This document shows positions 23,754-27,785 of a stretch of 64,000 nt of DNA, piece after piece. The position numbers and the translations under genes were made by a program. Origin of the DNA: a virus (Duplodnaviria > Caudoviricetes); the IMG/VR virus record IMGVR_UViG_3300048917_000432, positions 993 to 64,992 of that record; one strand, written 5' to 3'. Each line of letters begins with the position of its first letter. Position 1 is the stretch's first letter. Below the pieces are notes generated by a model. That model was not told the origin of the DNA and made no database searches. It saw only the letters and a list, made by a program, of their open reading frames with translations.

Positions 23754-24404
23754 ATGCCCGTCCTCGGCACTGCCAACGCGCTCAAGCTCGGCAATCAGAA
23801 CGTGGATGCGACCTACGTCGGCACCACCAAGACCTGGCCGCTGGTGGTGGCCACGCCCGAGCACACCATCTGGCCGAACACGCCGTTCTCCCCGGCGCTG
23901 ACGGTGTACGCGGACGGCACGCCCAAGATCACTCTGGCCGGAGTGTTCTATCGGACCGGCACCGCTACCAACGGTTGGCGGATCAAGGGTGGCCGGGTCT
24001 ACGTCCCCGCGGGCGCAACGGGTTTGCCCGGCACCATGCAGATCATGCTCTATGTGACGCCGTACCACACCAAGCCGGACCTGGCCCTCCCCCCGGACCA
24101 GTCCAAGACGGTCCCGGTGGTCATCGGCTCCTGGGTCCGAGCTCTGTTCGACACGCCCCGACCGATGGCCGTCGGCACGACCGAGATGGCCTGGATCGGC
24201 TACACGTTCAACGACGGCCACTACCTGCACGTCCCGATCCCGGCCCCGGATCCGGTGCAGTCCTACGACGGCTCGACTATCTGGCGCGGGGCGGCCGACG
24301 ACGGTGGCGGCAACTTCTCGATCTATCGGATCGGCACCGGCCCCACCGACTACTCGATCGGCGGGGCCGCCTACGGCACCGATGCGATCTGGGACGAGGG
24401 CTGA
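23754..24404 (+). CDS. Fibre-tip protein with DUF4082-like beta domain
   Basis: N-terminal LKLG..TYVG..WP; ITLAGVFY..GGRVY..GSWVRALFDTP. Confidence 0.55.
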   Translation: MPVLGTANALKLGNQNVDATYVGTTKTWPLVVATPEHTIWPNTPFSPALTVYADGTPKITLAGVFYRTGTATNGWRIKGGRVYVPAGATGLPGTMQIMLYVTPYHTKPDLALPPDQSKTVPVVIGSWVRALFDTPRPMAVGTTEMAWIGYTFNDGHYLHVPIPAPDPVQSYDGSTIWRGAADDGGGNFSIYRIGTGPTDYSIGGAAYGTDAIWDEG

Positions 24405-24486
24405 GCGCATCTTGACCCGGTATCAACGCTTGGCCTGAGCGCTCGGAAATGGTGTCCGGGAAGAGCCCGGAACAAGCCAAACGCCA

Positions 24487-24515
24487 CCGCCCCCGTGAGT
24501 GGTCAACGGGGGCGG
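24487..24515. terminator. Hairpin between convergent genes
   Basis: ccgcccccgt/acgggggcgg inverted repeat. Confidence 0.55.
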
Positions 24516-24529
24516 CTGCGTGCGGGGAA

Positions 24530-24742
24530 CTACTTGTTCTGCTGGCTGTACTGCTGGGCGATCTGGTGGAGCTGGGCCTCGACCTGCTCCTGAGGAAGCC
24601 CGGCCTCCTGGGTGAGTGTCGTGACGTCCGGCTCGGAGCCCAGGCTGGACTCGTCCACGTCGGGGAAGGTGGCCTTGATCTGGGTCTTGGCCTGCTCCCA
24701 GTTCTCCTTCAGGGTCTTCTTGTCCTGCTGGCTGAGCGTCAT
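24530..24742 (-). CDS. CsbD/YjbJ-like protein
   Basis: NWEQAKTQIKATFPDVDESSL..GLPQEQVEAQL fits the CsbD pattern; RBS GAAAGGA. Confidence 0.6.
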   Translation of the reverse strand: MTLSQQDKKTLKENWEQAKTQIKATFPDVDESSLGSEPDVTTLTQEAGLPQEQVEAQLHQIAQQYSQQNK

Positions 24743-24811: not shown

Positions 24812-25027
24812 CTAGTCGCCCTGGCGGGCGATGCCGGCCGAGGCCCACATCATGACGTCCTCGAGGTGGGTCATGGCCAGAGCCTTCTCCCGCCCTTCGG
24901 GAACCACGGAGTCGAGCTCGGTGGCCAGGCGTTTGCAGCCGGCGCGGACGCCGGCGTGCTCGTCGGCATGGTCGATGCGGCTGTTCGCGTGGTAGTCGAA
25001 CCTGCGGCTGATCTCGGCGGCGTCCAT
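24812..25027 (-). CDS. Acb2/Tad1-like helical-hairpin protein (candidate immune-signal sponge)
   Basis: RRFDYHA..GREKALAMTHLEDVMMWASAGIAR. Confidence 0.7.
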   Translation of the reverse strand: MDAAEISRRFDYHANSRIDHADEHAGVRAGCKRLATELDSVVPEGREKALAMTHLEDVMMWASAGIARQGD

Positions 25028-25035
25028 CGGGTCGG

Positions 25036-25512
25036 CTACTTCGAGGCCCTGGCCTGGGCCGCCCGGTCCGCCTCGGTCTGGTTGGCCAGGCCCCGAGCTG
25101 CGGCTGTGGTGTCCGCGGACGCGCGGGACGTCTCGTGCGGGTTCGCAGTGCCGGCCTTCAGCCGCTCCTGGCGAGCCTTTTCCTCCTCGACCAGCGCCTT
25201 CTTGACCCGCTCCTGCTCGACCTTGGCCGCTTCGGCCTTGGCCTCCTTGGCGTTGTCCACGGCGATGAACTCGACCGGGCGGTCCTTGTCGTTTTCCCGC
25301 TTCTTCTTCTCGTCCTTGAGCTGCTTGACCACGTCGGCGAGCACTTCCTCGACCCGGCTCAGCTCCTGGCCCGACATCTGGGCGTAGCGCTCCGGCCGCA
25401 CCTCGTTGCCCAGGTGGGACGGGGTGATGTTGGGCAGCTGGTAGGCGATCAATCTGGTCGCCTCCTCCCAGTCGGCCTGGAGTAGTTCGGTGTCCTGCTG
25501 GCTCAGTGCCAT
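25036..25512 (-). CDS. CsbD-like N-terminal domain plus charged coiled coil
   Basis: MALSQQDTELLQADWEEATRLI paralogous to 24530 gene; RBS GGGAGGA. Confidence 0.65.
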   Translation of the reverse strand: MALSQQDTELLQADWEEATRLIAYQLPNITPSHLGNEVRPERYAQMSGQELSRVEEVLADVVKQLKDEKKKRENDKDRPVEFIAVDNAKEAKAEAAKVEQERVKKALVEEEKARQERLKAGTANPHETSRASADTTAAARGLANQTEADRAAQARASK

Positions 25513-25724
25513 GACTCGTTCCTCCCTGTCGACGGCGGTTGCCGTGTCCGGTACCAAGAATGATGCTCCGCCGGGCAGCACGCGTCTTGCTCCGGCGGCC
25601 ACGCTTGGGACGGGCGCACGGCATGGTGTCCGGGGAGATCCCGGGACGGGCCCTCTGGATGGCCTCATGAAACACCGCGCGCCGGCAGCACGCGCGTGTG
25701 GATCGGCCGTGGGATTCTCAGATC

Positions 25725-26006
25725 ATGACTACCAAGAAGAGCGCGACCGAAGCCACCGAGGTCCCCGGCGACTTCAGCGACCCGGCCTTCGCGGAGGCGA
25801 ACGAGCACCTGTACGACAAGGCCTATGACCAGACCATCCCGGCCGAAGAGGCCGAGGAGCAGGCGCTGGCCCGGGGCAAGGAGGCCGAGGAGGCCGCCAA
25901 GGACGAGGCCAAAGCCTCGGCCAGCAGCAACAAGGCCGAGAACCAGGAGCTGCACCACAACGCGGCCCAGCACAAGGCCGCGCATCCGGATCAGGCCAAG
26001 AAGTGA
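25725..26006 (+). CDS. Ala/Glu/Lys-rich low-complexity protein
   Basis: 93 aa, GTGA overlap with next gene. Confidence 0.6.
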   Translation: MTTKKSATEATEVPGDFSDPAFAEANEHLYDKAYDQTIPAEEAEEQALARGKEAEEAAKDEAKASASSNKAENQELHHNAAQHKAAHPDQAKK

Positions 26007-26344
26007 CCAGCCCGGACGGCGAAGAGCTCGCCCCGGCCGATGGCCCCTTCGTCGAGCCGACCGCATTGGCCGGGCTGGAGAAGGATTTCGCCGACGACGA
26101 CGAGGACGACGAGGATCCGGACGTCGAGATCGACGACGATGACGATGTCGTCGATGCCCTGACCCTGGCCGACGAGGAGGACGACGAGGACTTCGACGAC
26201 GAGCCCAACGAGGCCGAGGTCCAGCCCCTGGAGGACGACGAGGCCGCATTGGTCATCCGGCCCCAGGAGCAGGCCGGCGCCGAGGACGACCCCGAGGCCG
26301 ACCAGAACGTCGGGATCAGGGAGCCCGAAGGGGAAACTCCGTGA
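26003..26344 (+). CDS. Highly acidic protein
   Basis: Long D/E runs; GTGA overlap with endolysin. Confidence 0.65.
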   Translation: MTSPDGEELAPADGPFVEPTALAGLEKDFADDDEDDEDPDVEIDDDDDVVDALTLADEEDDEDFDDEPNEAEVQPLEDDEAALVIRPQEQAGAEDDPEADQNVGIREPEGETP

Positions 26345-27279
26345 CCAACTACCCCCGCAGCGCCTACGGGAGTTCGAATCCCAACGCCGGCTACCCGGCC
26401 AACGGCGACCGCGCCGCCTTCGGCGGCCATGCCTGGCCGGCCGGGGTGCCCACCGGGCTGCTGGCGCGCACGACCTACACGTCGTCCAAGGGACAGCGCA
26501 ATTTCGTGGTGATGCGCCGGGAGCTGGTGCCGCTGTGGAACCTGGCCTTCGAGATCTGCGATCGCAAGCACGGGTACACCGTGTGGTCGAATCACAACGG
26601 GGAGAACTGGGGTCCCTGGGGCTACGAGAACCGCGCCATTTCCGGCACCTCGACCGCATCCGGCCACTCCATGGGCCTGTCGGTGGACATCAACGCCCCG
26701 TTCAATCCGTACAGCTACACGTTCCAGTCGGACATGCCGCCGAAGATGGTGGCCGATCTGGAGTCGCTGGGCCTGTACTGGGGCGGTAGGTACCAGGGCC
26801 AGAAGTACGACGCCATGCACTTCGGGTTCTGCCGGGCGCCGGGCACGCTCGGCCAGTACATCGCCAAGGCCCGGGCGATCCTGGGCAAGCCGGCCCCCAA
26901 GCCGCCGGCGCCGAAGCCGCCGACCAAGGTGACGGGCATCCCCAAGCCCAAGAAGACCGCGACCTACAACCCGGCGGGACGTAAGCCGGTGTGGCCGCTG
27001 CCCGCGGGGCACACGCTCGGTGTCGCCAGCGGTCCGGCCACGCAGCACTCCGGAGACCCGCGCTACGACTCTGCGGTCACCCGCTCGCGGATCAAGATCC
27101 CCCAGTCCTACCTGGGGGCCATCGGGTGGTACACGGGCAGGATCGACGGTCTGTTCGGCAGCGGCATGGAGGCCGCAACCAAGCGATTCCAGAAGGCGTA
27201 CAACGGGCCGACCGGCAAGCTCAAGGTCGACGGCATCATCGGGCCCCGCACCTGGAACGCGATGGGTTGCCGAGTCTGA
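26341..27279 (+). CDS. Endolysin: M15-family peptidase + peptidoglycan-binding domain
   Basis: WGYENRAI..SGHSMGLSVDIN..WGGRY..DAMHF; IDGLFG..FQK..VDGIIGPRTW. Confidence 0.9.
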   Translation: MTNYPRSAYGSSNPNAGYPANGDRAAFGGHAWPAGVPTGLLARTTYTSSKGQRNFVVMRRELVPLWNLAFEICDRKHGYTVWSNHNGENWGPWGYENRAISGTSTASGHSMGLSVDINAPFNPYSYTFQSDMPPKMVADLESLGLYWGGRYQGQKYDAMHFGFCRAPGTLGQYIAKARAILGKPAPKPPAPKPPTKVTGIPKPKKTATYNPAGRKPVWPLPAGHTLGVASGPATQHSGDPRYDSAVTRSRIKIPQSYLGAIGWYTGRIDGLFGSGMEAATKRFQKAYNGPTGKLKVDGIIGPRTWNAMGCRV

Positions 27280-27290
27280 GGGTGGGGGAC

Positions 27291-27785
27291 GTGAATGCAC
27301 CGCGTGACGACGACCGACCCGGCACTGACAAGCGCATCGTCGACGCCGGTGCGGGAAGCGTTCTGGGTGACCCAATTCCGCCTGGTCCTACCGTTGGTAC
27401 TCGGGGCGGCGGCGTTCGTGACGGGGCTGATCACCAGGGACCTGCTGTGGATCGGGATCGGCGGGTCACTGATCGGGATTCCTGGTCTGGTCAGCGCCGT
27501 CGGTACGCGCTCCCACTCCTCGACCGGGTCCTCCTGATCGCCAGCTACGCCATTCTGGTGCTCACCGTCGTCTTCGGCGGCCTGTGGCTGCAGCACCAGC
27601 TGGATGACGCCAAGCAGGATCGTTGCCAGTTGGCCTACGGTCAGATCAAGGTGCTCAGGGCCGAAATCAACGTCTTCCAGGTGCAGATCCAGGCACTGCC
27701 GGCGGACCAACTGGCCGCCGCCCAGCAGGCGGTGCAGTCCGCGGTGGACTGGGTGAGCGCCGAGTGCGGTCCGATACCCTCCTGA
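27291..27785 (+). CDS. Single-TM coiled-coil lysis-cassette protein (start uncertain)
   Basis: Only canonical start is GTG 27291; TM LLIASYAILVLTVVFGGLWL followed by coiled coil. Confidence 0.5.
   Translation: MNAPRDDDRPGTDKRIVDAGAGSVLGDPIPPGPTVGTRGGGVRDGADHQGPAVDRDRRVTDRDSWSGQRRRYALPLLDRVLLIASYAILVLTVVFGGLWLQHQLDDAKQDRCQLAYGQIKVLRAEINVFQVQIQALPADQLAAAQQAVQSAVDWVSAECGPIPS
27295..27537 (+). CDS. Two-TM holin-like protein nested in the previous ORF
   Basis: Two TM helices directly after endolysin. Confidence 0.6.
   Translation: MHRVTTTDPALTSASSTPVREAFWVTQFRLVLPLVLGAAAFVTGLITRDLLWIGIGGSLIGIPGLVSAVGTRSHSSTGSS

Follow-up and report, generated by a model that had tools for sequence, protein, structure and literature searches.

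Introduction

The closest described relatives of the protein studied here are the sponges of the Acb2 and Tad1 types. In PaMx33 Acb2, the dinucleotide pocket contains a stacking tyrosine, Y11, and a phosphate-binding lysine, K26, and the phosphates of cA3 are held on the three-fold axis by R67 and T74. In CbTad1, the pair R90/T97 holds the cA3 phosphates in the same manner (the numbering of the CbTad1 chain equals the numbering of the paper plus one), and these two residues contribute in Tad1 to the hexamer as well. The Tad1 proteins (CbTad1, 7UAV, and CmTad1) are 120-140 aa long, with an N-terminal antiparallel beta-sheet that forms the gcADPR/dinucleotide pocket.

The activities of many such proteins were compared by Hadary et al. 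(bioRxiv 10.1101/2025.08.24.671296), who tested 84 sponges, 46 of them Acb2 homologs, on seven defence systems that rely on signalling; cyclic-trinucleotide systems lay outside that screen. Of the 84 sponges, 19 showed no activity against any of the seven, and Thoeris I was inhibited by 10 of the 46 Acb2 homologs. The same study showed that Acb2 homolog 43 (Acb2_43, PDB 9PTQ) binds 3'cADPR via T4, H5, L6, V7, K19 and K55 together with extra beta strands, and that its activity is directed against Thoeris I and not against CBASS. Homolog #35, which is encoded by cluster-K-like mycobacteriophages such as Krueger and Ximenita, inhibited the 3'3'-cGAMP CBASS of E. albertii in liquid and in plaque assays and was without effect on Thoeris I, II and IV and on Pycsar (Hadary et al.).

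Here we analyze a 71-aa protein encoded by an uncultured virus, within a stretch of 64,000 nucleotides that we call the window. An initial annotation had read the gene as an immune-signal sponge candidate and an anti-defence gene, and this reading is supported by the sequence comparisons presented below.

A three-gene cassette between the tail-fibre and lysis genes

The window, 64,000 nucleotides long, comes from an IMG/VR viral record of 64,992 bases, which is 85% complete according to CheckV and has a GC content of 68%. The contig encodes a Mu-type portal, an XkdF-type protease, collagen-like and tail-collar fibre genes, a D5-type primase and an M15 endolysin. The nearest matches to the portal (46%) come from Arthrobacter phages, in agreement with the actinophage setting proposed initially. 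A megablast search with the 10 kb around the acb2-like gene returned no phage record.

The acb2-like gene (P0001) lies on the minus strand from 25027 to 24812, with its ATG at 25027 and a TAG stop codon at 24814-24812. The presence of a 71-aa open reading frame with an Acb2/Tad1-like sequence was confirmed. Its GC content at the three codon positions is 0.69/0.46/0.93, a coding-type pattern shared with the endolysin gene and with the portal gene of the same contig (0.66/0.40/0.94), and we therefore consider the reading frame as real. Furthermore, its start methionine coincides with that of the homologs. Two longer reading frames over the same site were dismissed on codon-position GC. The first, a 287-aa frame of the mechanical list, extends the gene upstream in frame, and this extension, with a GC3 of only 0.49, is non-coding; the second is an overlapping plus-strand frame of 312 aa (GC3 0.78). 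The length of 71 aa given initially was thus correct, but the protein does not end at GREKALAMTHLEDVMMWASAGIAR as had been written: this stretch is present and is followed by the three residues QGD, so that the C-terminus reads ...ARQGD.

Together with one minus-strand gene on either side, the acb2-like gene forms a three-gene cassette that lies inverted between tail-fibre genes of the plus strand, which end at 24404, and a plus-strand lysis block that starts at 25698. Upstream in the operon, gene A (25036..25512, minus strand, 158 aa) is preceded by a good Shine-Dalgarno sequence, GGGAGGA. Its stop codon lies 8 nt before the ATG of the acb2-like gene, which has no Shine-Dalgarno sequence of its own, and from these two features we infer that translation of the acb2-like gene is coupled to that of gene A. 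Downstream, gene C (24530..24742, minus strand, 70 aa) has its own Shine-Dalgarno sequence, GAAAGGA. Genes A and C are paralogous over 70 aa (33% identity, E 2e-11): the N-terminal domain of about 65 aa in gene A, with the motif M-x-LSQQD..L...WE.A common to both proteins, is followed by a tail rich in Lys and Glu. Neither protein had a Pfam or PHROG match, even at an E value of 10, nor relatives in a word-indexed protein search, and gene C is an orphan outside its own cluster. Neither gene occurred in 80 other viral loci with an Acb2 homolog. A search of the Atlas gave a faint lead towards a CsbD/DUF883-like fold for the two proteins, at scores below 0.9.

Immediately after gene C, a GC-rich hairpin at 24478..24516 on the minus strand (-35 kcal/mol, z -3.4, none of 200 shuffles as good) is probably the terminator of the cassette at the point where it meets the convergent tail-fibre genes. 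A second candidate hairpin, between the acb2-like gene and gene C, was no better than shuffled sequences (z -0.11) and was rejected. A consensus promoter scan between the divergent operons found nothing. The diverging lysis block (25698-27537, plus strand) begins with two small, very acidic proteins of 102 and 113 aa that belong to no family, followed by a 312-aa endolysin with an M15_4 peptidase and a PG_binding_1 domain, and ends with a membrane protein of 80 aa that faintly matches DUF3040.

The 71-aa protein belongs to the Acb2 family

The protein matched the Acb2/Tad1 hairpin domain of Pfam (PF24729) with an E value of 4e-18 and 65.8 bits, for a cut-off of 27, over model positions 2-58 (57 of 58), which is far beyond chance. 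The domain was found once in the 64,992-bp record by a six-frame search (65.1 bits), and the same profile search gave no match in 14 control cellular genomes. PHROG 1454 (phrog_1454), a group whose function is not known, was matched at E 3.6e-25. Searching the PDB with the single sequence retrieved Acb2_43 as the best match (E 0.0018); with a profile built from eight close relatives, this match improved to 2e-7 and CbTad1 was also reached, at 4e-3. The family is very large: when 1.84 billion representatives were searched with a profile, 7,211 clusters were collected at E <= 1e-3, of which 2,398 at <= 1e-10.

By tblastn, the family was found in 324 phage records, mostly of actinophages, the hosts being mainly Mycobacterium (201 records), Paenibacillus (59), Gordonia (38), Streptomyces (9) and Arthrobacter. 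Every homolog listed among these records is annotated as "hypothetical protein", including Fionnbharth gp5 and others from the well-studied mycobacteriophages of cluster K; the Krueger/Ximenita type has already been shown to block CBASS, yet homologs in phage records keep the label. The genomic neighbourhood of the homologs varies from phage to phage, which fits an accessory gene. Fused or extended variants also exist, as seen from Streptomyces phage KimJongPhill gp38 (L003:3989-4393), in which the Acb2-like hairpin makes up the first ~70 of 134 aa and whose gene adjoins the endolysin gene, and from the longer forms, up to 193 aa, that are common among the profile matches.

Comparison with the solved proteins specifies the kind of member. 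PaMx33 Acb2 and T4 Vs.4 (8H2J, 8H39, 7UQ2) belong to the same Pfam domain (71 bits for T4 Vs.4) and are likewise made of a short N-terminal element and a two-helix hairpin, but neither has a significant direct pairwise similarity to the 71-aa protein, which is 17-23 residues shorter and without insertion between the helices. With Tad1 it shares the homologous C-terminal hairpin, whereas the N-terminal beta-sheet is absent: the structural model contains no strands, and on Tad1 the alignment with the family profile is limited to residues ~52-108. Since the beta domain is missing, the architecture is that of Acb2 and not that of Tad1. These results bear on several statements of the initial annotation. 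Family membership, proposed there as a candidate, is clearly borne out by the profile match. The stated likeness to the C-terminal helix of Tad1 was correct, as the CbTad1 chains align to residues 44-64, and so was the lack of the Tad1 N-terminal beta region, given the length of 71 aa, the all-helical model and the alignment of the C-terminal hairpin only. The description as a short version of an Acb2/Tad1-like protein holds for the family and needs refinement for the architecture, the protein being an Acb2 rather than a truncated Tad1. By its sequence it is a clear member of the Acb2 family, an ordinary and well-conserved one from an uncultured actinophage-like virus. In Table S1 of Hadary et al. 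(bioRxiv 10.1101/2025.08.24.671296; a list of 4,204 members), the part used for comparison did not contain the exact protein.

Predicted fold and homodimer

The AlphaFold2 model, built from an alignment of 70 sequences, has a pLDDT of 91 and consists of a short helix followed, after a loop, by a pair of long antiparallel helices. The N-terminal helix (residues 3-10) leads into a loop (residues 11-20) with the F10-D11-Y12-H13 motif. The first helix of the hairpin (residues 21-41) carries R28 and is joined through the turn P43-E44-G45 to the second (residues 46-67), which carries R46, T53, E56 and W61; four residues then remain up to the C-terminus. Foldseek searches of the PDB with this model gave no match at E <= 0.001, the Tad1 chains appearing only at E 2.4. 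When the model was compared with 48,161 representatives using VIA-align, 9PTQ and 7UQ2 were both recovered at Z 6.1 (rmsd 2.7 and 3.4, respectively, over 57 residues) among many unrelated helical proteins. Because the Acb2 structures stand within this background of unrelated helical hairpins, the fold search is neutral with regard to family assignment.

A homodimer modeled with 3'3'-cGAMP riding along reached an ipSAE of 0.61, against 0.00 for the best of three controls, and thus passed its controls; among solved pairs of one chain, 20 of 30 reached the mark, and among single chains 1 of 23. Agreement between the runs was 100% in terms of contacts, with partner pLDDT values of 87 or higher, and the interface followed helix 2. 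Since like assemblies have already been solved, the result may show likeness to the known Acb2/Tad1 assemblies rather than bring independent evidence. Members of the Acb2 family are normally hexamers, organized as a trimer of dimers. The equivalents of the Tad1 hexamer contacts, R46, T53, M60 and W61, are present in the 71-aa protein, M60-W61 matching the M-W pair of the Tad1 hexamer interface. The helical hairpin would accordingly be expected, by analogy, to assemble into a homo-oligomer, presumably a hexamer.

Conserved residues of the two predicted pockets

The invariant or nearly invariant positions of the family are R9, F10, Y, F or H at position 12, H13, H24, R28, P43, R46, E47, T53, E56, W61, A64, A67 and R68. 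The 71-aa protein retains every family-invariant residue except for the substitution N63S. In the family alignment R46 is invariant and T53 is found in 68 of 70 sequences. These two residues align directly with R90/T97 of CbTad1 and, via T4 Vs.4 (T68), with R67/T74 of PaMx33 Acb2. They reproduce the signature of the trinucleotide pocket, an Arg and a Thr seven residues apart in helix 2, and suggest that the cyclic-trinucleotide site is probably working.

At the putative dinucleotide pocket, the 71-aa protein appears to have an aromatic and a basic residue at the places of Y11 and K26 of PaMx33 Acb2. In the 70-sequence alignment, position 12 is always aromatic or His, H13 is present in 69 sequences and R28 in 65. 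The spacing between Y12-H13 and R28 is that of the tested homolog #4 (Y11...R26). R28 aligns weakly with K23 of T4 Vs.4, the equivalent of K26 of PaMx33 Acb2, the lysine being replaced by arginine, and it also aligns with K19 of Acb2_43. The register of the N-terminus relative to PaMx33 Acb2 and T4 Vs.4 is uncertain, and since this alignment is not significant (domain score of -1.2 bits) either Y12 or H13 may be the counterpart of the stacking Y11.

Tested relatives and the likely ligand

We then turned to Table S2 of Hadary et al. (bioRxiv 10.1101/2025.08.24.671296), which lists several proteins that share the motif type of the 71-aa protein. The closest of the tested relatives is #35, with 50% identity over 64 aa and no gaps. 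The two proteins are of the same length class and of actinophage origin, and share the pattern RF-x-[FY]-H ... H..VR ... P.GR.KALA.T.LEDVM. They differ in that #35 (Krueger gp4/Ximenita gp5 type) has an N-terminus longer by 9 residues, and H and R in place of E47 and W61. The next relatives are #4 (41% identity), which inhibits cGAMP CBASS, and #44 (36% identity), which inhibits both cGAMP and cUA CBASS (Hadary et al.). Within the same motif type, #33, #20 and #14 also inhibit cGAMP CBASS, #27 inhibits Thoeris I and cUA CBASS, and the close-looking #38, #37 and #17, as well as #19, were inactive everywhere (Hadary et al.). Most active members of this motif type inhibit cGAMP CBASS, and because members of the type differ in this way the prediction of an anti-CBASS activity is probabilistic. 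Nevertheless, ligand specificity, which the initial annotation had left open, is less so than stated there, as three tested relatives of 36-50% identity inhibit CBASS and not Thoeris.

Taken with the conserved residues, these comparisons make it fairly probable that the protein is an anti-CBASS sponge of the Acb2 family, which would bind cyclic dinucleotides and probably cyclic trinucleotides (cA3/cAAG) too. The 3'3'-cGAMP-like dinucleotides would lie in a pocket made of N-terminal elements from two protomers, with Y12 or H13 stacking and R28 on the phosphates, and R46 and T53 would probably hold cA3 or cAAG on the three-fold axis. Such a sponge would sequester nucleotide second messengers produced upon infection by abortive-infection systems of the host, and would thereby keep the effector from ever being switched on.

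The sponge fold may have been kept with a ligand from outside the tested set, such as the cA4/cA6 of type III CRISPR, a signal specific to actinobacteria or the housekeeping c-di-AMP/c-di-GMP, or binding may have been lost. The 19 of 84 sponges inactive in the seven systems give this explanation some ground, as does #38, one of the inactive proteins, which shares the pattern F-x-Y-H ... H..VR ... GREK ... MMWA.AGIAR with the 71-aa protein. PaMx33 Acb2 also binds c-di-AMP, and cyclic-trinucleotide systems were outside the screen of Hadary et al. We consider it unlikely, however, in view of the family-invariant residues, which are intact apart from N63S, and of the inhibition of cGAMP CBASS by most active members of the motif type.

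Like Acb2_43, the protein could instead bind 3'cADPR, the signal of type I Thoeris, and not the CBASS nucleotides. Acb2_43 is its best sequence match in the PDB with the single sequence as well as with the profile. The two proteins share the PEGREK turn and the T.LEE helix, F2-D3-T4-H5 of Acb2_43 lines up with F10-D11-Y12-H13, and the pocket histidine (H5, here H13) and basic residue (K19, here R28) are both kept. Moreover, the 10 of 46 Acb2 homologs that inhibit Thoeris I include #27, with the same FTYH-type motif. However, four of the six contacts of Acb2_43 are changed (T4 to Y12, L6 to A14, V7 to N15 and K55 to A64), which leaves only the equivalents of H5 and K19. Acb2_43 also possesses N- and C-terminal beta strands that have no counterpart here: the C-terminal extension forming its beta2 is absent, the 71-aa protein stopping four residues past the helix. 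In addition, none of the three closest tested relatives (#35, #4 and #44) inhibits Thoeris I. A 3'cADPR sponge thus appears distinctly unlikely, and the retention of only H13 and R28, with no C-terminal extension, argues for cyclic oligonucleotides of CBASS as the most likely target rather than Thoeris signals.

The cassette itself suggests a further idea, which we regard as a very doubtful one: the orphan paralogs A and C might be new counter-defence partners of the sponge, for instance by masking it from systems that sense sponges, such as Panoptes, or the sponge might be tuned to actinobacterial c-di-AMP/c-di-GMP and manipulate host physiology, not defence. Finally, it is highly improbable that this is a small helical protein with a non-defence role (structural, regulatory or chaperone-like) whose profile match reflects a common helical hairpin, because, although the fold searches put the model among many unrelated hairpins and the listed homologs in the 324 phage records are all "hypothetical", the sequence match is specific, 38 bits above the curated cut-off of Pfam, the conserved polar residues are the ligand-binding ones of the solved members, and none of the 14 control cellular genomes matches the family.

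Discussion

As a new member of the Acb2 sponge family, the protein leaves the knowledge of sponges unchanged; the annotation is sound and an ordinary one. Nevertheless, it offers a firm and specific annotation for a gene family that is labelled "hypothetical protein" in 324 deposited phage genomes. It also leads to a prediction on the biology of the virus, namely that its high-GC host, or relatives of this host, would use a defence based on cyclic-oligonucleotide signalling. Since both pocket signatures appear to be kept, the 71-aa protein would be a compact test case for whether an actinophage Acb2 can bind di- and trinucleotides at once.
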